This document shows, piece by piece, positions 5,922-61,870 of a stretch of 64,000 nucleotides of DNA. Origin of the DNA: a virus; IMG/VR virus record IMGVR_UViG_3300009703_001822; one strand, written 5' to 3'. The position numbers were made by a program, and so were the translations under genes. Position 1 is the first letter of the stretch. Each line of letters starts with the position of its first letter. The notes under the pieces are model-generated. The model saw only the letters and a program-made list of their open reading frames with translations, ran no database searches and was not told the origin of the DNA.

Positions 5922-7478
5922 ATGAGAGGAATCATACTAGGATGTCTACAAGCAAATCCAGGCTGGCAAGGACCACTAGGTCTAATGAACCCAGACTGGA
6001 TTAACCTTAAAAGATCAGGAGGCGCACACAAGATTGCAACCTACATGCGTAGCGAAGGATGGGATATTGAAGTCCTGGATTATTGGCTGGCGTTTACTGA
6101 TGAAGAGTTCAAAGAATTTTGCCGTTCAAGAATAACAAATGATACAAAGTTCATAGGTGTTAGTGTAACCTTTGGATATAAAGGAAACATTCTTAAAAGA
6201 GCACAAGATAATCTTACATGGTTAAAACAAACCTATCCAGATATCATGATCGTTGCAGGATCAAAAGCACTGGTTGATACTATGGCCTTACCATGTGATT
6301 ATTACATAACAGGTTATGGAGAGTTTGGTTTAATAAAACTCTTACAGGGAGAGGCAAAAGTAATAGAGTGTATGGGTAAACAGGTTGTATTATCAGACAC
6401 ATATCACCCTTGTTTCCCTAGTAAGGACCTTGTAGTAAACTATGAGGACAGAGACTTTATACAACCCTCAGACAACCTCACATTAGAACTCTCCCGTGGG
6501 TGTAAGTTTAAATGTAAGTTCTGTTCATACAATGCAATAGGTATGAGAGGAGACTTAACTAGGGACATGAGTACATTACATGGAGAGATGTTAGAAAATT
6601 ATGAGAGATGGGGTGTAACGAGTTATCATGTAGCAGACGAAACAACAAATGATAATCAGGAAAAAATAAAACTAGCAGGACAGGAGATACAAAGATTACC
6701 TTTCATGCCTAATCTTACAGGTTTTGTTAGAGCAGATTTAATTGCAAGAAGGCCAGAGGATAAAGTTTATTTAGCTGAGATGGGATTCTGGGCTCACTAC
6801 TATGGCATAGAAACTTTTAATCAAGATGCAGGAAGAGTAGTAGGTAAAGGTATAAATCCTGAAGAACTAAAAGCAGGATTATTAGAAGTAAAAGATTATT
6901 TTAAAAAGCATTGCGGTAGATACAGATCAACGGCAAGTTTAATATTAGGATTGCCATATGAAACAACAGAGAGCCTCTATGATGGTTTAACCTGGTACAG
7001 AAGTAATATGCCTGAGGAGAACTTAATACTTCAACCATTGTTTATTAATAAACATGTTGATCCTAACTTAGGAACATCATCAGAGTTTGCAAGGACATGG
7101 AGAGAAGGTAAACACTTTCATTCCGAAGCTCCCAGAGAAGAATTTACACAAGAAGAATTAGATTTATTTGACGGCAACCCTTTAACATTACAATATTTAA
7201 AAAGATTACATGACGGTCCTCATTGGGTAAACTGGAGTCATGATACATTTACTTGGAAGTCAGCAATATTAGAGTTAGGCAAATTTATATTAAAAGATGG
7301 GTATAACTATAACAATAATAGAATAATGACATGGGATTTATTTAACTTTGTGACGCCTGGAACATATAATTGGGACAATGTTTTGGACCTTACGATTGTT
7401 AATTATGATTGGAAAAAACTAGCATCTGATACAGATGAATACCTCCAAAATTACAAAAATTCCAAATTGGGCTTATAA
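5922..7478 (+). CDS. Cobalamin-binding-type radical SAM enzyme (paralog 1)
   Basis: ELSRGCKFKCKFC CxxxCxxC motif, N-terminal B12-binding-like Rossmann (IGVSVTF...IVAG), VADET, GIETF, ILGLPYET. Confidence 0.85.
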   Translation: MRGIILGCLQANPGWQGPLGLMNPDWINLKRSGGAHKIATYMRSEGWDIEVLDYWLAFTDEEFKEFCRSRITNDTKFIGVSVTFGYKGNILKRAQDNLTWLKQTYPDIMIVAGSKALVDTMALPCDYYITGYGEFGLIKLLQGEAKVIECMGKQVVLSDTYHPCFPSKDLVVNYEDRDFIQPSDNLTLELSRGCKFKCKFCSYNAIGMRGDLTRDMSTLHGEMLENYERWGVTSYHVADETTNDNQEKIKLAGQEIQRLPFMPNLTGFVRADLIARRPEDKVYLAEMGFWAHYYGIETFNQDAGRVVGKGINPEELKAGLLEVKDYFKKHCGRYRSTASLILGLPYETTESLYDGLTWYRSNMPEENLILQPLFINKHVDPNLGTSSEFARTWREGKHFHSEAPREEFTQEELDLFDGNPLTLQYLKRLHDGPHWVNWSHDTFTWKSAILELGKFILKDGYNYNNNRIMTWDLFNFVTPGTYNWDNVLDLTIVNYDWKKLASDTDEYLQNYKNSKLGL

Positions 7479-13001: not shown

Positions 13002-13421
13002 ATGAGTGATCAAGAGAATTACTTTAACATAGACTATCCAGGGTATTCACCCCTAGAAGTTTCCTTAAATGACTCAGAAGATTTTTTGAAAGTCAGGGAA
13101 ACTTTATCTCGGATTGGAGTAGCTTCTAAAAAGGACAAGGTCCTTTATCAGTCATGCCATATTCTACACAAGAAAGGTAGGTACTTTATAACACACTTTA
13201 AAGAACTATTTGCTCTTGATGGCAAGGAAGCAGACTTTCAAGATAACGATTTACAAAGACGAAATACTATTGCTAAACTTTTACAAGATTGGGGTTTAGT
13301 AAGTATTATGACAGAGGTAGAAGATTACGCACCTCTAAGTCAGATTAAGATTATATCGTTTAAAGAGAAAGGTGAGTGGGAGCTAATCCCCAAATACAAC
13401 ATTGGAAAGAAAGTTAAATAA
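13002..13421 (+). CDS. regA: Translational repressor RegA
   Basis: FLKVRETLSRIG...LYQSCHILHKKGRYFITHFKELFALDG. Confidence 0.96.
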   Translation: MSDQENYFNIDYPGYSPLEVSLNDSEDFLKVRETLSRIGVASKKDKVLYQSCHILHKKGRYFITHFKELFALDGKEADFQDNDLQRRNTIAKLLQDWGLVSIMTEVEDYAPLSQIKIISFKEKGEWELIPKYNIGKKVK

Positions 13422-14685
13422 AAACCAGATACAAGCCCTTCAAATCATAAAGGACGAACAGGACAATGTAGGGCCTGGTTTCTGCGTGCTAAAATGGTAT
13501 CATTTAGAAATGCACTTAGGAACAGGCGAAAGTCATTCTTGTTATCATTGCCCCACACAAAAAATTCCACTAGGAGCTGACTTACACAATACACCTCAAA
13601 AAATAGAAAAAAGAGCTGAGATGTTGCAAGGCAACAAACCTTCAGAGTGCTCTTATTGTTGGGAGGTAGAGGATCTTGATTTAATCTCAGATAGACAAAC
13701 TCTTGCAGTACAATTTTTTAAACATAATCGAGATATAGTAAAAGAGGCAACTGATGCTGGCTTAGGTTATGTTTATCCTAAATATTTAGAATTATCTTTC
13801 ACCAATAAATGTCAAATGGCATGCAGTTATTGTGGACCTACATTTAGCACAGCATGGGGAAAAGAAATAGATGAGCATGGACCTTATAATTTATCTAAAC
13901 CTTATAATTTACCTCAAACACCACAACTAGAAAACTCTCCCTATGTATCTAAGTTTTGGAAATGGTTTCCACAAGCATACGAACATTTATTTACTCTTAG
14001 AGTAACAGGAGGTGAACCTTTATTAGATAAGAATACATATAAACTTCTAGAATATGTTAAAGAGCATCCTAGAAAAGGATTAACATTTCATTGTAATTCT
14101 AATCTTATGGTTTCAGCAAATAGAGTACAAAAATATATTGACCTAGTAAAAGATGTGCCTAATACAAAACTTTATGCCAGTGTTGACTCATGGGGAAAAG
14201 AAGCAGAGTATATTAGACATGGTTTAGACATAGATCATTTTGAGGAAAATTTAATTAGATTATTAGCACAAGGAATACATGTAGGTATTATGTGTACATT
14301 TAATTTTTTATCTATTCCTAATCTTAGTGGTTTTATATTTAAGATGGCAGAACTTAAAATACAATTTGGAGATTTAATAACAATTGATATGCCTTATATG
14401 GTTTCTCCAGCACACCTTTCAGCACAAATTTCTGATGATACTCATATAAGTATAATGGAAGAAGGATTAAAAGAAATGCAACTTTATCCTTTTTCTTTAG
14501 GCGAAATAGAAAAATTTAAAAAGACTGTAGGTTGGATAAAGGCAAATAGATTTCAAGATTTAGAACTACTAAAACACAGAAGAGATTTTTGGCATTTTGT
14601 ATATGAACATGATAAAAGAAGAGGCACAAATATTAAAGATGCCTTTCCTGATTTAGGATTTGATAATGATAAACTTCGAGGGTAA
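13402..14685 (+). CDS. Radical SAM protein with N-terminal twitch/SPASM-like Cys cluster
   Basis: CQMACSYC, TGGEPLL; N-terminal FCVLKW...SCYHC...CSYCW. Confidence 0.85.
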   Translation: MERKLNKNQIQALQIIKDEQDNVGPGFCVLKWYHLEMHLGTGESHSCYHCPTQKIPLGADLHNTPQKIEKRAEMLQGNKPSECSYCWEVEDLDLISDRQTLAVQFFKHNRDIVKEATDAGLGYVYPKYLELSFTNKCQMACSYCGPTFSTAWGKEIDEHGPYNLSKPYNLPQTPQLENSPYVSKFWKWFPQAYEHLFTLRVTGGEPLLDKNTYKLLEYVKEHPRKGLTFHCNSNLMVSANRVQKYIDLVKDVPNTKLYASVDSWGKEAEYIRHGLDIDHFEENLIRLLAQGIHVGIMCTFNFLSIPNLSGFIFKMAELKIQFGDLITIDMPYMVSPAHLSAQISDDTHISIMEEGLKEMQLYPFSLGEIEKFKKTVGWIKANRFQDLELLKHRRDFWHFVYEHDKRRGTNIKDAFPDLGFDNDKLRG

Positions 14686-28972: not shown

Positions 28973-29699
28973 ATTAACTGTTGGTTATACCTACTTCGAA
29001 GAGCCAGATAGATTAAAACAACAGATTAAAATCTGGCAGCGTTGGCCTGCAAATGTTGATATATTTTTAGTAGATGATGGCTCAGAAATATTTCCTGCCA
29101 AGGATATAATAGATAGTCATTTACAGTTAGAAGATTGGCAACCTACATTTCAACTCTGGAAATGTACAAGAAATCTCGGATTTAATTCTCACGGTTGTAG
29201 AAATTTAATAGCAAAATACGCACAAACAGATATCATACAGTTTTTAGATATGGATATGTTTATGTATGAAGGTGATATTGCTAGACTTAAAAAAATTAAA
29301 TGGGAGTCTGATTATATTGCACATCATAGGGCATACAAATCATTTGATCAATTAGTATCTAATCACCCTGGACATTTTAATTGTTTTGCTACACATAAAG
29401 ATCTTTTTTGGAAAGCTGGTGGTTATGATGAGTCTTTTACAGGACATCATTATGGAGATAGAGAGTTTATAAACAGAATATATGCACAGGAACATAAAAA
29501 AGTTAAGACAGAAATAATAATTACATTAGATAGAAAGGGAAAACATGGCTCTGTAGACCATAGTGTAGACAAAACAGTATATGATTTAGGAGACGAGCTT
29601 TATTTTAAAACTCCTTTAAAAACTTCTGAAGTCAAAAAACTACGAGGTACAATAAAACAAAGGATAAACTTTCCTTTTATTAAATTAAAGGACTTATAA
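28920..29699 (+). CDS. GT-A fold glycosyltransferase (GT2/GT7-like)
   Basis: FLVDDGS, CRN, FLDMD, GGYDESF.GHHYGD; probable TTG start after GGAGA. Confidence 0.85.
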   Translation: MTSQQKTQLYSRSKENHRLTVGYTYFEEPDRLKQQIKIWQRWPANVDIFLVDDGSEIFPAKDIIDSHLQLEDWQPTFQLWKCTRNLGFNSHGCRNLIAKYAQTDIIQFLDMDMFMYEGDIARLKKIKWESDYIAHHRAYKSFDQLVSNHPGHFNCFATHKDLFWKAGGYDESFTGHHYGDREFINRIYAQEHKKVKTEIIITLDRKGKHGSVDHSVDKTVYDLGDELYFKTPLKTSEVKKLRGTIKQRINFPFIKLKDL

Positions 29700-29702
29700 A
29701 TA
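29695..29702 (+). promoter_or_regulatory. Late promoter 5 nt before ATG
   Basis: TATAAATA-CTGAT-ATG. Confidence 0.75.
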
Positions 29703-29707
29703 CTGAT

Positions 29708-30871
29708 ATGAGATTCAAGAACTTTTTAACAGAACAAGCAGCAGAAGAAGACAAGCTCAAGCACCTTGAACATGTCGAGGATCATGTTATTCACGCTGGT
29801 AAAGAAGGTTTTGGACATGCGTTTCATACATTAAATGATGTGCATAATGGATTACAAGGTAAGGGTTCTGGACAGACACAGACTACAATTAAATATGATG
29901 GCAGTCCTGCTGTAGTATTTGGTAAACACCCAGAAAATGGCAAGTTTTTTGTAGCGTCCAAATCAGCATTCAATAAAGATCCTAAGATTAATCATACACA
30001 CGAAGATATAGAGGCTAATCATGGACATGCACCTGGACTTGTTAAAAAGTTAAAAGGAGCATTAGACCACGCACATAAAATAGAGCCTGATGGTATATAT
30101 CAAGCAGATATAATGCACACAGAAGGTGATGTACAAAAGAAAGGTAATAGAGTAGAGTTTACACCTAATACTCTTACATATCATGCACCACATGACTCAG
30201 ATCATGGTAAAGCAGCTGCTAATTCTAAATTAGGACTAGCAGTACATACAAAATACGAAGGTAAGACTTTTGAAGGCTTGAAAGCTGTACATGGTGCTGT
30301 GGACCACAGTAACTTTAAAAAGCATAAAGATGTACACATGATGGACGCTAATCACGATACAAGCACTCATAGATACTCTATGGAGGACAGAAAACAAGTA
30401 GACCACCACTTACAACAAGCAGTAGGACACTTTAAAAATACCCCTGATGAGCACCACGAAACAATGCAGAAACACGCTGTGGCTAAGAAAGTATATATTA
30501 ACCACACTATAAGAACAGGCGAACAATACTCACATGAGGGTTTCGTAGCACATGCTAGTGCTAAACACCAGAAGAAGATAGATGGTGTTAAAACAGATGC
30601 AGCTAAAGCTAAGCATCAAACTACTAAAGATAACACTATAGGACATATAAATAAGAATAAAGAACACTTTGAAGGCCCTATGAATATGCACAAACATCTT
30701 CAAGCGGCAAAGAATATTATTACAAAGACGATGTCTCAGAAGTCCCAATGGGGACATGAAATAGCTGGGGCACCTAGTAAACCAGAAGGTTTTGTTGCCA
30801 TACGAAATGGCAGGCCTTCTAAATTTGTAGACAGGAGTGAATTTAGCGCTGCTAATTTCAACAAAGACTAA
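29708..30871 (+). CDS. His-rich ligase-like nucleotidyltransferase (DUF6267-like) with capsid-targeting-like N-terminus
   Basis: MRFKNFLTE; motif I-like KYDG, motif IV-like EGFV, motif V-like KFVDR. Confidence 0.65.
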   Translation: MRFKNFLTEQAAEEDKLKHLEHVEDHVIHAGKEGFGHAFHTLNDVHNGLQGKGSGQTQTTIKYDGSPAVVFGKHPENGKFFVASKSAFNKDPKINHTHEDIEANHGHAPGLVKKLKGALDHAHKIEPDGIYQADIMHTEGDVQKKGNRVEFTPNTLTYHAPHDSDHGKAAANSKLGLAVHTKYEGKTFEGLKAVHGAVDHSNFKKHKDVHMMDANHDTSTHRYSMEDRKQVDHHLQQAVGHFKNTPDEHHETMQKHAVAKKVYINHTIRTGEQYSHEGFVAHASAKHQKKIDGVKTDAAKAKHQTTKDNTIGHINKNKEHFEGPMNMHKHLQAAKNIITKTMSQKSQWGHEIAGAPSKPEGFVAIRNGRPSKFVDRSEFSAANFNKD

Positions 30872-30882
30872 GGAGAAAAGAC

Positions 30883-30936
30883 ATGCAAAGTAAATGTAAA
30901 TGCTGTAAATGTTGTACTTGCACTTGTTGTGGATAA
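30883..30936 (+). CDS. 17-aa Cys-rich peptide (not in ORF track)
   Basis: AAGGAG RBS, MQSKCKCCKCCTCTCCG, TAA directly followed by the nfuA ATG. Confidence 0.7.
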   Translation: MQSKCKCCKCCTCTCCG

Positions 30937-31542
30937 ATGAATATTACAGTAACAGACACAGCGATAACTTTTTTAAAGAATCTGGTTGAATCTCAGAATC
31001 TTCAAGATCCTAAAGGTGACAGGACGAATATTCTATTACAAGTAGATAATCCTGGCACACCTCAGGCAGAAGTAACGCTATCTTATTTGAAAGAGTCTGA
31101 GAAAGGTGATAGAAATATTATAAACTATGATGGTTTTGATTTATATGTAGAACCTAAACATGAAAAATATTTAGACGAGTGTATTCTTAATCATTCAGAG
31201 GATACATATGGTGGCTCACTAACTATTAAAGCACCCAATTCTAAAGTATCTAAATTAGATGAAAATTCTACTTTAGAAGAAAAAGTTAATTATTATCTTA
31301 CTAATGATATAAATCCTATGTTAGCAATGCACGGCGGACAAGTTCAACTTTATGAGATAACAAAAGAAAAACAAGCAGTATTACAATTTGGCGGAGGTTG
31401 CCAAGGTTGTAGCGCAGTAGATATGACATTAACTCAAGGAATAGAAGAAGTATTACTAGGGAAAGTTCCTGAAATAACAGGAATATTAGATATGACAGAT
31501 CATAGTTTGGGACAAAATCCCTATTACCAGGGAGCATATTAA
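30937..31542 (+). CDS. nfuA: Fe-S biogenesis protein NfuA
   Basis: ITVTDTA, NPGTPQAE, LTIKAPNSK, INPMLAMHGG, FGGGCQGC, DMTDHS.GQNPYY. Confidence 0.92.
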   Translation: MNITVTDTAITFLKNLVESQNLQDPKGDRTNILLQVDNPGTPQAEVTLSYLKESEKGDRNIINYDGFDLYVEPKHEKYLDECILNHSEDTYGGSLTIKAPNSKVSKLDENSTLEEKVNYYLTNDINPMLAMHGGQVQLYEITKEKQAVLQFGGGCQGCSAVDMTLTQGIEEVLLGKVPEITGILDMTDHSLGQNPYYQGAY

Positions 31543-32402
31543 TGGCAGAAGATAAGCACATAGTATTTTCATATGGTAGGATGAATCCTCCTACTGCTGG
31601 CCACTCTAAAGTCGTGGACAAAGTAAAGTCTCACGCGGATAAGATTGGTGCAAATCATGCTGTGGTTGTTAGTCATTCACAAAACAATAAAACAGATCCT
31701 TTACATCACGAGCACAAAAAAGAGTATTTAAGACATGTTCATCCTGATGTAAACTTTGAACATTCTACAAAAGAACACCCACATTTCTTAGCACAACTTA
31801 AGAAATTTAATCATGAAGGCCATACACACGCAACAATGGTTGTAGGTAGTGATAGAGTAAAACAGTTTAAGTCATTAGCTCATAAATATAATGGCAAAGA
31901 GTATAATTATAAAAAGATACATATCTTGTCAGCAGGACAGAGAGATCCTGATGCTGAGGGAGTTGCAGGTATAAGTGGAACAAAGATGAGAGCACATGCT
32001 AGTGGCAATGACTTTAAATCTTTTAAATCGGGATTACACCCAAATCATAGTGATGATCATGCCAAAAAACTATACAAAGCAACACGACAAGGTATGAACT
32101 TACAGAAGGAAGAAGTAGGCATGTTAGATTTTCATAAGTTTTTATTAAAAGAAGACATGGAAGGAATGTCTCAGAAATCTGGAGACAAAAGAAGTACAGA
32201 AAGTGGTGCTGGTATGACGGCTCAAGGAGTAGCCAAGTATAATAGACGAACAGGTGGTAATCTAAAAACAGCAGTAACTACACCACCAAGTAAACTTAAA
32301 AAAGGCAGTAAAGCAGCAGGAAGGCGTAAGTCTTTTTGTGCTAGGTCCAAAGGTTGGACAGGCGAGAGAGGCAAAGCTGCTAGGCGGAGGTGGAATTGTT
32401 AA
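31542..32402 (+). CDS. HIGH-family nucleotidyltransferase fused to a basic C-terminal module
   Basis: YGRMNPPTAGH, VVGSDR, SAGQRDPD, SGTKMR; C-terminal RRKSFCARS...RRRWNC. Confidence 0.8.
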   Translation: MAEDKHIVFSYGRMNPPTAGHSKVVDKVKSHADKIGANHAVVVSHSQNNKTDPLHHEHKKEYLRHVHPDVNFEHSTKEHPHFLAQLKKFNHEGHTHATMVVGSDRVKQFKSLAHKYNGKEYNYKKIHILSAGQRDPDAEGVAGISGTKMRAHASGNDFKSFKSGLHPNHSDDHAKKLYKATRQGMNLQKEEVGMLDFHKFLLKEDMEGMSQKSGDKRSTESGAGMTAQGVAKYNRRTGGNLKTAVTTPPSKLKKGSKAAGRRKSFCARSKGWTGERGKAARRRWNC

Positions 32403-36511: not shown

Positions 36512-38083
36512 ATGAACCACGGTATTATATTAGGTGGTGTGGTTGACTATTATTATGACTCCATAAAAAGAGCGCCTGGCGCACATAAAATAGCAACACA
36601 TCTTCGTAGGGAAGGCTGGAATGTTGAAGTTCTAGATTTTGTTCAGTCTTGGACATTAGAAGAACTACAAGAATTTGCTAGACAAAGAGTAACAAACAAA
36701 ACAAAATTCCTAGGCCTTTCTGCTACATTCTCCATTAGATTTAAAAATTTATTTGAATTTGTAAGATGGTTCAAAAAAGAATATCCTGATGTTATAATAG
36801 TAGGTGGTTCTCAAGCATTTCATAATACACAAGGATTACCCTTAGACTATATGGTACATGGTTACGGAGAATTAGCTATGAGTGCTATTCTTAAGGGTGA
36901 TGTAAAATATACAGAACATAAATGGCTCAACGGACATACATTTAGACGAGTAGATGCTACACATAATTATATGGCAGCTCGTATGAAGAACTTATCTACG
37001 CATTACGAGGAAAGGGACTATATAGCACCACAGGAGGTCCTTACAGTAGAGTTTGGTCGTGGGTGTATATTTAATTGCCACTTCTGTACACTAACATATA
37101 GGAACATTAAAGACGATCACAGCAGGTCTGAGGACAACTTATACACAGAATTATTAGAAAACTATGAGAAGTGGGGTACTACAAACTACTCTATATCAGA
37201 TGAAACAGTAAATGATTATACAGAAAAACTAGAAAGATTTGCTGGTTCTATTAGAAAGTTACCATTTAAACCTAATTGTGCAGGTTATATTCGTGGAGAC
37301 TTATTAGTACATAAACAAAAAGACTGGCAAGCAATCGAGGACATAGGATTGAATACACAATTTTATGGTATAGAATCCTTTAATACACCTTCAGCAAAGT
37401 CTGTAGGTAAAGGTATGCAGTCAGGTAAACTACAAGATGGTTTACTAGAATATAAAGAACACATGAAAAGTAAAGGACACTTTCAAGCACATTTAAGTCT
37501 AATAGCAGGACTACCACATGAAACTTTAGATACATTAAGAGAAACAAAAGCCTGGATAGAAGAAAATTGGGTAGGACAATCTTCTCAAATTATGCCTTTA
37601 TGGATACCTGATCAACACAGACCTTATGAAGAACAAAGTAGATTTGCAATGGACCCTGGTAAATATGGATATACAAAAACAACAATGGCAGAGTCTAGTA
37701 ATGGACATTGGGAGGACGGACCTCAAGGTAGATTCGGAAACTTATATAGAGGTATAAAACATAGAGAAGATAACCAAGAAGGCAAAGTAATATACAATAC
37801 AGAAGAGAGTACATTTCAAGAGGAAATGTCCTTTATGAACTGGAAAAGTGATACTCTTAACCTATATCAAATATTAGAGTACTTAGAACATGAATGGTAT
37901 ATAGACAGTAAACAACTAAAAAGCGAACCTCCTTTGCCATTCTCATATCACAATTGGTTAATAGATTCTAAATACAAATGGGAAGATATGAAAACACCTA
38001 AAGATGAATTAGATTTGCCTAAGGAATTAGCAGCTAACTTTATAACTGATTATAAAAAGAAAAAATTAGGATTGACTTCTTAA
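36512..38083 (+). CDS. Cobalamin-binding-type radical SAM enzyme (paralog 2)
   Basis: EFGRGCIFNCHFC, IIVGG, ISDET, GIESF, IAGLPHET; CATAAATA-N5-ATG. Confidence 0.85.
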   Translation: MNHGIILGGVVDYYYDSIKRAPGAHKIATHLRREGWNVEVLDFVQSWTLEELQEFARQRVTNKTKFLGLSATFSIRFKNLFEFVRWFKKEYPDVIIVGGSQAFHNTQGLPLDYMVHGYGELAMSAILKGDVKYTEHKWLNGHTFRRVDATHNYMAARMKNLSTHYEERDYIAPQEVLTVEFGRGCIFNCHFCTLTYRNIKDDHSRSEDNLYTELLENYEKWGTTNYSISDETVNDYTEKLERFAGSIRKLPFKPNCAGYIRGDLLVHKQKDWQAIEDIGLNTQFYGIESFNTPSAKSVGKGMQSGKLQDGLLEYKEHMKSKGHFQAHLSLIAGLPHETLDTLRETKAWIEENWVGQSSQIMPLWIPDQHRPYEEQSRFAMDPGKYGYTKTTMAESSNGHWEDGPQGRFGNLYRGIKHREDNQEGKVIYNTEESTFQEEMSFMNWKSDTLNLYQILEYLEHEWYIDSKQLKSEPPLPFSYHNWLIDSKYKWEDMKTPKDELDLPKELAANFITDYKKKKLGLTS

Positions 38084-59666: not shown

Positions 59667-60207
59667 AAGATATAACGAAGTAGAAGTATTATCCACATAC
59701 CTCGAGACTAAGAACATAACAATATACAGTCATGGTCCTATAGGTACACGACCCTTTGAGCCATTCATGAAAGCATTAGGCACACGCACAATGCTAGCCT
59801 ATGTCAAGCCACACCATTGGATGAACATTACAAAAGAATATACAAATCACACGCACATATTAATATTACGAGATCCTGTAGAACAACACAACCACGCCAC
59901 ATTCCTACATGCCATGTCATTGAGAGATGTGGTACTGAAAAGAGACAACATGTTCTACTCTACACATTTACGACCACATCTAGGAACAATAGCACAAGCA
60001 GAGTTTGATTTCTATATTAACTATCAAGACTTGAATAAATACTTATTAGAATGGCAAAACCCTTATCCGCCTGTAGCAGAGACAGGCAAGTTTTTTAATC
60101 TCGATGAAGAGGTTGCAGCGTTTGAATTTATCAAACGAAACAAGATGATATTAGAAGTGCCACAATGGAGGGAATTGTTGTTACACGGACAATTGAATGA
60201 AATATAA
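59650..60207 (+). CDS. Hypothetical protein, weakly sulfotransferase-like
   Basis: HGPIGTR and LILRDP resemble PAPS-binding motifs. Confidence 0.4.
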   Translation: MNTAPERYNEVEVLSTYLETKNITIYSHGPIGTRPFEPFMKALGTRTMLAYVKPHHWMNITKEYTNHTHILILRDPVEQHNHATFLHAMSLRDVVLKRDNMFYSTHLRPHLGTIAQAEFDFYINYQDLNKYLLEWQNPYPPVAETGKFFNLDEEVAAFEFIKRNKMILEVPQWRELLLHGQLNEI

Positions 60208-61870
60208 AGGAATAATACTCGGCGGAGCGATAGAAAGAGCAGACACATCGGAAACCAGGAATCAAGCTCCTGGTTTGTCTACTCCAGAGCCACCTGAAAC
60301 CTGGCATAGTATTAAAAGATCTGCAGGTGCACACAGAATAGCCACACATTTACGAGAAGAAGGCTGGGACATAGAAGTGGTAGACTTCTGGCCTGCTTGG
60401 ACTCGTGATGAATTATTAGATCTAATGGAAAAGAGAGTAGACGAAAATACTAAGTTCATAGGCATTTCATCTATGTTTCCTTTACAAGGACCTAGCGGTG
60501 GCACTATGGTGCAAACTATGAACGAAACAGTTCAAGAAATTAAGAAAAGACACCCACATTTAATCATTATAGGAGGTTCTCAGAATGTAGGAGCATCTTT
60601 ACAATGGTGGTGTGATTATTATATTGCTGGCTTTGCAGAAGTAGGAATAATAGAACTATTAAAATATATTACAGGCGATGGCCCTGAACCTTCAGGAATG
60701 GTAACTAAGGAAGTCTGGGGTATGGAGAGAAAATGGATAAACTGTAGACATCATTATCCTGCTTTCCCATGGCCTGATGCTAAGGTTAAATATGAAGACA
60801 GAGACTTTATGAGATCTGATGAAGTGCCAACGGTAGAATTCAGTCGTGGGTGCAAGTTTAAATGTAGATTCTGTTCCTTCTCTGTACTAGGAGTTAAAGG
60901 AGATTATAGTAGAGATGAAGATAGTCTTTACGAAGAACTATTAGATAATTATGAGAGATGGGGCATAACAACCTATTCAGTATCTGATGAAACTATCAAC
61001 GACTCAGAAGAGAAACTAGCAAAACTAGCACGAATAGCAAAACGATTACCTTTCCAACCATCATTCCAAGGATTTATGAGAGCAGATTTATTAGCATCCA
61101 AACCTGATACTTGGCAGGATGTATGGGACTCAGGTGTTAGATCACATCTTTATGGTGTGGAAACTCTCAATCATGAGGCAGGCAAATTTGTAGGCAAAGG
61201 CATGAATCCTGATAGATTAAAAGAAGGCCTTTTACGAGTTCAAGACTATTTCGGCAATAAAGGATTCTTCCGCTGTACAATATCAACGATTATAGGTTTA
61301 CCAGGAGAAACAGAAGAGACATTCCTAGCAGGTAGAGACTGGATATTGAATAACTTCAAAGGTCATGCTTTCTCGTTTTTCCCTCTCTTTATAGGACAAA
61401 ATGAGACATTTACAATGATGACAAACCCTAGTGTTCTAGAGCGAGAGTGGGCAGACAAGACTACAAAAGTATTATGGGAAACTAATGCAGAAGAGATGGG
61501 TGTTGATTATGAAGAACTACATCCTAGAATGAGACAGACAGCTAAATTTTATATGGAAGCTCCTGGTGTGGCAAAGTGGGCTAATAAAGACATGAATGTG
61601 TGGCAAGCATTTAAAATATTTAACAGAGTAGCAAGCGAGGCATTACTACCTACACAATTAGCTCCTGGTATATTCTTTTACCATAGATATCTCACAGGCA
61701 CAGATCATACAGTTCAGGACATGCAACAGACATTTTTAAGCGAGAATAAGCTACAATTAAATCGCCAATTGACGATGGATGATTACAATATAGATCCTTC
61801 ATTGACAACAATATATCCTAAACAGTACGAGATTATAGAAGAGTACAAGAGAAAAAAACTTGCAGTATGA
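60197..61870 (+). CDS. Cobalamin-binding-type radical SAM enzyme (paralog 3)
   Basis: EFSRGCKFKCRFC, IIIGG, VSDET, GVETL, IIGLPGET. Confidence 0.85.
   Translation: MKYKGIILGGAIERADTSETRNQAPGLSTPEPPETWHSIKRSAGAHRIATHLREEGWDIEVVDFWPAWTRDELLDLMEKRVDENTKFIGISSMFPLQGPSGGTMVQTMNETVQEIKKRHPHLIIIGGSQNVGASLQWWCDYYIAGFAEVGIIELLKYITGDGPEPSGMVTKEVWGMERKWINCRHHYPAFPWPDAKVKYEDRDFMRSDEVPTVEFSRGCKFKCRFCSFSVLGVKGDYSRDEDSLYEELLDNYERWGITTYSVSDETINDSEEKLAKLARIAKRLPFQPSFQGFMRADLLASKPDTWQDVWDSGVRSHLYGVETLNHEAGKFVGKGMNPDRLKEGLLRVQDYFGNKGFFRCTISTIIGLPGETEETFLAGRDWILNNFKGHAFSFFPLFIGQNETFTMMTNPSVLEREWADKTTKVLWETNAEEMGVDYEELHPRMRQTAKFYMEAPGVAKWANKDMNVWQAFKIFNRVASEALLPTQLAPGIFFYHRYLTGTDHTVQDMQQTFLSENKLQLNRQLTMDDYNIDPSLTTIYPKQYEIIEEYKRKKLAV

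Follow-up and report, generated by a model that had tools for sequence, protein, structure and literature searches.

Does an open reading frame (ORF) of only 17 codons, eight of them coding for cysteine (Cys), that lies immediately before nfuA in the IMG/VR virus record IMGVR_UViG_3300009703_001822 represent a gene, and what would its product do? We examined this frame, hereafter the micro-gene, within the whole stretch of 64,000 nucleotides (nt) that was analysed (the window). The gene is real and conserved, its position varies between genomes, and in phages it is coupled stop to start with the gene behind it. Its peptide belongs to a family with the spacing CxCCxCCxCxCC, present in many ocean phages and in one gammaproteobacterial order of small marine bacteria. 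With moderate confidence, we read the peptide as a free-standing metal-thiolate, metallothionein-like micro-protein.

The preliminary description of this locus had claimed an eight-Cys frame of 17 residues behind an AAGGAG sequence, with its TAA touching the ATG of nfuA. The coordinates were confirmed (30870-30875, 30883-30936, and 30937 for the nfuA ATG), as listed here:

30883..30936, + strand: micro-gene, 17 codons and a TAA, encoding the peptide MQSKCKCCKCCTCTCCG with eight Cys in the spacing CxCCxCCxCxCC
30870..30875, + strand: Shine-Dalgarno sequence AAGGAG of the micro-gene, with a 7-nt spacer to the ATG at 30883
30934..30939, + strand: TAA-ATG junction, where the micro-gene stop abuts the nfuA start; putative site of termination-reinitiation coupling

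The AAGGAG overlaps the TAA (30869-30871) of the upstream gene, which encodes a DUF6267 protein, and 0 nt separate the TAA of the micro-gene (30934-30936) from the ATG of nfuA (30937). It had also been proposed that nfuA lacks a clear Shine-Dalgarno sequence and that gene callers miss the micro-gene. Both points hold, as no match of 4 nt or more was found in the 20 nt before the nfuA ATG, and the ORF was unannotated in every contig gene table examined.

Among the ORFs of up to 45 codons in the window, the micro-gene alone has more than five Cys. It is the sole Cys-rich ORF of this size on the coding strand, the other Cys-containing matches all being on the non-coding strand, and the mean Cys content of the long + strand frames of the window is 0.92%. 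The tract inside the micro-gene looks repetitive (AAA TGT / AAA TGC TGT / ACT TGC / ACT TGT TGT), and the peptide contains three CC pairs.

The first relatives of the window were gathered through NfuA alone. In one of them (L025), whose NfuA is 86% identical, the same junction holds AAGGAG, then MSKCKCCECCSCTCCG, then TAA-ATG. Relative to the window copy, this micro-gene has an in-frame indel of 3 nt, and three Cys codons are swapped synonymously; two further changes are synonymous, and two residues are replaced conservatively. Cys-rich micro-ORFs with synonymous variation, for which the preliminary description had proposed to look upstream of nfuA in related phages, do therefore occur there. 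A degenerate DNA pattern with relaxed x codons and fixed Cys codons was then run on viral and metagenome contigs. It matched 15 viral and 25 metagenome contigs, all of 34-37% GC, and the 43 instances represent 24 distinct ORF DNAs and 14 peptide variants. In its exact window-type form, with K and T fixed, the degenerate pattern gave no match, and a fully relaxed Cys pattern was swamped by (TGY)n simple repeats in the viral contigs and in the 400-genome class sample described below, adding three phage variants only. No micro-gene was found in the regions examined of Pelagibacter phage HTVC008M, P-SSM4, and HTVC100P.

The known family comprises at least 24 distinct ORF DNAs, all of which keep C-x-C-C-x-C-C-x-C-x-C-C. 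The phage variants fit M-x(1-4)-C-K-C-C-[EKS]-C-C-[STNE]-C-[TAE]-C-C-G-stop; they are 16-18 residues long and 47-50% Cys. Only K, E, S, T, N, A, or D occupy the x positions between the Cys, with no aromatic or hydrophobic residues, and all copies have 1-4 residues ahead of the first Cys. The window peptide has the traits by which the family is delimited, namely an ORF of 15-19 codons, eight Cys in the exact spacing, and hydrophilic x residues.

An unbiased sample was obtained by anchoring on the cytidylyltransferase-like (CTase-like) protein encoded downstream (alignment A1). Of the 36 loci at or above 75% identity, the eight-Cys micro-ORF is present in 13 and a different, six-Cys peptide (MCKCESCKCDPCTCSN) in 3; the other 20 have neither. 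In this sample, copies of the micro-gene were either intact or wholly absent, and no frameshifted or decayed copy was seen. For nine distinct cores retrieved via flanking proteins only, the ratio of non-synonymous to synonymous polymorphism (pN/pS) was 0.093. Their Cys codons showed zero replacements, synonymous differences were saturated, and every Cys third position varied. A TG-rich tract drifting out of frame in relatives, the outcome that the preliminary description had named as fatal to its proposal, is contradicted by this pN/pS of 0.093, by the in-frame indels, and by the lack of any frameshifted copy. Since relatives keep the frame, through indels that respect it and synonymous exchanges of Cys codons, its preservation goes far beyond chance and, as judged from this pattern of substitution, the eight-Cys reading frame is a real, selected gene.

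The anatomy around the frame is also conserved. Of 26 distinct contexts, 21 have a Shine-Dalgarno sequence of at least 5 nt at 6-10 nt before the micro-gene. Wherever a downstream ATG is visible, it lies 0-6 nt past the micro-gene stop and lacks a Shine-Dalgarno sequence of its own; the 0-nt TAA-ATG junction recurs in L025 and L064. In loci without the peptide, the genes on either side are coupled to each other directly, and termination-reinitiation coupling may be the default of the operon.

Across 185,579 species of bacteria and archaea, each represented by one genome, no true match to the strict phage-type pattern (first Cys followed by Lys, terminal Gly) was found. In a sample of 400 genomes from the class of an NfuA-bearing genome, one match was found, in a genome of 1.3 Mb. 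The gammaproteobacterial order of this genome has exactly one CxCCxCCxCxCC match in each of 19 out of 61 genomes and zero control matches. Genomes of the order measure 0.9-1.8 Mb, and the loci examined have 30-37% GC. The bacterial peptides (15-19 residues, e.g., MCDCCDCCECTCCSK) share with the phage copies the identical spacing and a similar length, and 10 of the 13 core positions of the window peptide are matched by MCKCCKCCKCSCCAK, a bacterial variant of Lys type. They start at M-C and end in [S/A/T]-K, whereas phage copies have a 2-4-residue N-terminal extension and usually a Gly end. The bacterial micro-genes (L313-L324, e.g., L323: 1498-1545) have a TATAAT 5-7 nt before the ATG and no Shine-Dalgarno sequence, and thus look leaderless. 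In most loci a spacer of 65-140 nt follows them, whereas the phage copies are led by a Shine-Dalgarno sequence and coupled stop to start. Their neighbours vary by genome, with one homologous neighbour lying upstream in two loci and downstream in two others. The acidic bacterial-type pattern had no match in viral contigs.

Three genes adjoin or follow the micro-gene in the window:

29708..30871, + strand: DUF6267 gene, upstream of the micro-gene (Pfam PF19782, E 6.5e-95), with a KYDG ligase/nucleotidyltransferase-like motif and 10.6% His in its protein
30937..31542, + strand: nfuA, iron-sulfur (Fe-S) cluster carrier with A-type and Nfu domains (Pfam PF01521, Fe-S_biosyn, and PF01106, NifU)
31542..32402, + strand: HIGH-motif CTase-like gene with a C-terminal DUF6321 (Pfam PF01467 and PF19846) and 8.0% His in its protein

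The ATG of the CTase-like gene overlaps the nfuA stop in the window (TAATG), and among relatives this gene is the most constant downstream neighbour of the micro-gene. The His contents of the DUF6267 and CTase-like proteins compare with 2.5% for the window, and 18 His are invariant in the CTase-like alignment (9 homologues). The His-richness of both neighbours suggests that they may bind several metals. PDB sequence searches with the two proteins gave no match.

The same peptide was found in at least five gene contexts, which would not be expected of a cis-acting element tied to one gene. The order DUF6267, peptide, nfuA, CTase (context A) occurs in the window, L025, and L064, and the commonest architecture is DUF6267, peptide, CTase, without nfuA (context B). 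In context C, the peptide lies downstream of nfuA, between it and the CTase-like gene. Context D is a podovirus-like block of small basic proteins upstream of the large terminase gene, and context E is one further phage type; single variants adjoin a PhoH-like gene or a ribonucleotide reductase gene. In context E (L056: 2430-2876 oriented; L067: 4901-5350), the micro-gene is overlapped or followed by the gene of a 148-residue protein that starts with a Cys-Asp cluster of its own, CPFCDCDPCDCDWG, and has no Pfam match.

Conversely, nfuA occurs without the peptide in L001 (NfuA 96% identical), L002-L004 (87%), L026, and L027, where the DUF6267 stop overlaps or abuts the nfuA start. At one junction, near-identical phages show three states: peptide and nfuA (window, L064), nfuA only (L001), and peptide only (L061). 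The window and L001 differ by a clean 66 nt, and the flanks of L061 are 97-98% identical to those of the window. On the CTase gene tree, the peptide state changes at least 8 times and the nfuA state 6 times, the sister of the window being the peptide-only L061. Given the three junction states and these separate gains and losses, the peptide and nfuA are two cassettes, independent of each other, that share an insertion hotspot. The earlier suggestion that they had been inserted as a unit is not upheld by these near-identical phages, and the micro-gene is probably not a dedicated switch for nfuA. Phages that differ so little, with the peptide, nfuA, or both at one junction, constitute a natural experiment.

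The DUF6267-CTase junction is a hotspot for micro-gene insertion. In L234, L236, and L237 (2449-2499), the six-Cys micro-ORF MCKCESCKCDPCTCSN, with CxC spacing, stands directly before the CTase-like gene and behind an extra 66-residue coiled-coil ORF. In L239, L240, and L243 (about 2390-2500), a small, very basic ORF (MGKGQNRERGNKNKKKPS...) occupies the junction instead of the Cys peptide.

What, then, would the peptide do? If it is metallothionein-like, the peptide itself would be the product and would wrap a small metal-thiolate cluster (Zn, Cu(I), or iron/Fe-S), buffering or handing on metal in late infection. Ribosomes would load at the micro-gene's own strong Shine-Dalgarno sequence and, having finished the peptide, would reinitiate on the next gene (nfuA in the window, the CTase-like gene in most relatives), because that gene has no such sequence. 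The operon would place the peptide between two His-rich nucleotidyltransferase-type enzymes, in a phage lineage full of Fe-S-dependent radical S-adenosylmethionine (SAM) enzymes. We favour the peptide as the functional product because Cys number and spacing are kept across myophage, podovirus-like, and bacterial settings, and because the x residues are hydrophilic, the downstream genes vary, and a Shine-Dalgarno sequence or a bacterial promoter is present. The surroundings also appear metal-flavoured, with His-rich flanks, the second Cys-rich peptide MCKCESCKCDPCTCSN in the same slot, and many radical SAM genes.

The shortest metallothioneins are the Cu(I)-thioneins of Neurospora crassa and Agaricus bisporus, with about 25 residues and 7 Cys, and the alpha domain of vertebrate metallothionein is rich in CC and CxC. 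Like the shortest metallothioneins (Lerch 1980, cited in PMC3033865), the window peptide is very small, about one-third to one-half Cys with CxC and CC motifs, and free of aromatics, its other residues being Lys, Ser, Thr, Gly, or acidic. The general marks of the class, small size and high Cys in CC/CxC motifs without aromatics, are present (8 Cys in 16-18 residues). The preliminary description had raised a minimal metallothionein among its options and, as far as composition goes (47-50% Cys, CC and CxC motifs, hydrophilic x residues), the family agrees with it. Unlike metallothioneins, the peptide has no sequence homology or Pfam match to them, and it is carried by phages and one bacterial order. 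We know of no described metallothionein as short as 16-18 residues. Should the peptide bind metal, no shorter metallothionein-like molecule would be known to us, and metal or thiol management would be a target of phage auxiliary genes, beside nfuA and the radical SAM genes. The micro-gene is borne by abundant ocean phages and widespread streamlined marine bacteria, yet it is invisible to standard annotation. No description of such peptides was found in the literature on phage metallothioneins, phage cysteine-rich small proteins, and phage nfuA.

Several points weigh against a metallothionein-like function. The tight stop-start coupling to a downstream gene that never has a Shine-Dalgarno sequence agrees just as well with a role in regulation or coupling. 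As an Fe-S ligand pattern, eight Cys with adjacent CC pairs are not canonical. Pfam, searched at E up to 10 with two 30-residue natural read-throughs containing the peptide, returned no family, the metallothionein profiles included, and phmmer with a 30-residue read-through found no match among 1.8 billion representative proteins. Moreover, the family was partly collected with a pattern that fixes the Cys codons, and the flank-anchored subset alone is unbiased. Finally, both translation and metal binding, as well as reinitiation on the next gene, are inferred from sequence alone.

The alternative that survives best, although we consider it unlikely, is a cysteine-sensing or coupling leader, in which the peptide would be irrelevant and the eight Cys codons would tie ribosome transit, and hence translation of the next gene, to charged tRNA-Cys. 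The micro-gene's own strong Shine-Dalgarno sequence is consistent with this, as is a downstream start placed 0-6 nt after the stop and lacking such a sequence in every context with a visible ATG. A link to nfuA would also be sensible, since Fe-S assembly uses cysteine. There is a precedent in mycobacteria, where polycysteine leaderless short ORFs, recognized by two or more consecutive Cys codons, serve as cysteine-responsive attenuators (the "Cys ribulon"; Canestrari et al., bioRxiv 10.1101/834739). Like these, the micro-gene is a short ORF packed with Cys codons upstream of other genes, and its three CC pairs provide consecutive Cys codons; the bacterial relatives, with their TATAAT 5-7 nt before the ATG, look leaderless as the mycobacterial examples do. 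Unlike these, the phage copies are led by a Shine-Dalgarno sequence and lie inside an operon, the AAGGAG-led frame of the window standing behind the DUF6267 gene rather than as a leaderless first ORF. No RNA duplex sequesters a downstream ribosome-binding site, as the downstream gene has none and the fold of 30855-30975 shows no structure beyond chance against shuffles (z = 0.29), leaving a stalled ribosome nothing to remodel. Cysteine metabolism is not represented downstream: the next gene is CTase-like in most contexts, encodes small basic proteins in others, and is nfuA in three, and in most cases it has no known link to sulfur metabolism.

Gene order argues in the same direction. The peptide follows nfuA in one architecture, peptide-free relatives couple the same genes directly via TAATG so that no leader is needed, and bacterial copies have varying neighbours on either side. 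Codon sensing needs neither an exact Cys number and spacing nor restricted x residues, yet both are kept from phages to bacteria. As a leader for NfuA in particular, which the preliminary description had offered, the micro-gene fares poorly: most family members precede a CTase-like gene without nfuA, several lie downstream of nfuA, others sit in unrelated phages, the closest NfuA relatives lack the peptide, and the region lacks RNA structure.

A partnership with NfuA, which may be seen as a special case of the thiolate-cluster reading, appears doubtful. The peptide would be a minimal holder of iron/sulfide or of an Fe-S cluster, exchanging clusters with NfuA for the benefit of radical SAM enzymes. 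Peptide and nfuA are immediate neighbours in both orders, and the phage lineage has 4-9 radical SAM genes. In the CTase-anchored set, the peptide is present in 6/6 distinct nfuA-bearing loci versus 4/21 without nfuA (Fisher p = 7e-4, uncorrected for relatedness). However, this signal comes from three phylogenetically independent contrasts and is not significant at that level, and the nfuA-anchored set contradicts it, with four distinct nfuA-bearing relatives that lack the peptide. In many phages with the peptide, and in other contexts, no nfuA adjoins it, and a shared insertion hotspot would by itself produce the adjacency. We are equally hesitant about the fuller scheme in which the peptide and the phage NfuA would together mature the 4-9 radical SAM enzymes, with the stop-start coupling making the late operon track cysteine/Fe-S status. 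If the Fe-S/NfuA proposal were true, the peptide would be a virus-encoded, 16-residue component of Fe-S trafficking.

Less probable still is that the peptide is the precursor of a ribosomally synthesized and post-translationally modified peptide (RiPP), cross-linked or methylated by a phage radical SAM enzyme, the B12-binding ones included. The window has four radical SAM genes (5922-7478, 13402-14685, 36512-38083, 60197-61870), two of them with B12-binding domains, and as many as nine matches occur in relatives. Sactipeptides and ranthipeptides typically have Cys-rich precursors, and the micro-gene resembles such precursors (e.g., SCIFF) in encoding a short Cys-rich peptide in genomes with radical SAM genes. 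It differs from them in that a leader peptide, a neighbouring SPASM-type maturase, and an acceptor-residue motif are all lacking. With 1-4 residues before the first Cys, there is no N-terminal leader for an enzyme to recognize. No architecture places a radical SAM gene next to the micro-gene, and in the window the closest one lies at a distance of 5.6 kb. No maturase is co-distributed with the peptide either: radical SAM genes occur in relatives with and without it, and a peptide-free relative (G405) keeps three radical SAM matches. Contigs of the other contexts were uninformative on radical SAM genes, being short fragments of 2-20% completeness. The varying neighbours of the bacterial copies also speak against a RiPP precursor, and the RiPP substrate put forward in the preliminary description is thus poorly matched on leader, adjacency, and distribution. 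That the frame is open by chance, as a slippage-prone, TG-rich by-product without function, is extremely improbable, as the repetitive look of the tract is set against a pN/pS of 0.09, all eight Cys kept across independent retrievals, in-frame indels, a conserved Shine-Dalgarno sequence, and the presence of the peptide in unrelated phages and in bacteria.

Transcription of the operon may begin at a motif just before the DUF6267 gene:

29695..29702, + strand: TATAAATA, T4-type late-promoter-like motif just upstream of the DUF6267 gene

The window contains 15 matches to this motif (14 on the + strand), and many directly precede gene starts. With a mean of 10.7 in shuffled sequence, this total does not exceed chance, and the promoter role of the motif is therefore putative; the copy at 29695-29702 may start the transcription unit that contains the micro-gene. 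Around the micro-gene, no sigma-70-like or terminator signal stood out.

The window derives from a T4-like marine myophage. It encodes a family B DNA polymerase, a clamp loader, UvsX, a gp41-type helicase, and NrdAB, and its DNA has weak similarity to Pelagibacter phage HTVC008M and to cyanomyoviruses. The lineage is unusually rich in radical SAM genes, and one relative (L210/G402, IMGVR_UViG_3300020472_001862, 170 kb, 99% complete) has nine PF04055 matches, eight of them above the curated cut-off. At 175-1722 of the window, an ORF matches the Plug domain of TonB-dependent receptors (PF07715, E 2.8e-7), which is unusual in a phage.

The phage NfuA is 41-54% identical to gammaproteobacterial NfuA; used as a single-protein query against viral contigs, it gave no match. 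A host assignment through NfuA failed, as the NfuA of the peptide-bearing bacterial order (41-50% identical) is not nearer than Cellvibrionales-type NfuA (49-54%). Among the closest cellular homologues is that of a bacterium with a 5.3-Mb genome (L289-L291, 171-3004; NfuA 54% identical), in which nfuA adjoins copB/pcoB and a multicopper oxidase gene; no Cys-rich micro-ORF was found upstream of nfuA at this one locus examined. In other marine phages (L005-L024, e.g., L005: 1-3603), the NfuA is 66-67% identical and no Cys micro-ORF accompanies it. Their nfuA stands in a cluster of fixed order, comprising the genes of a large radical SAM protein, ClpP, an IscA/ErpA-like protein, two unknown proteins, and NfuA, which looks like an Fe-S maturation module.

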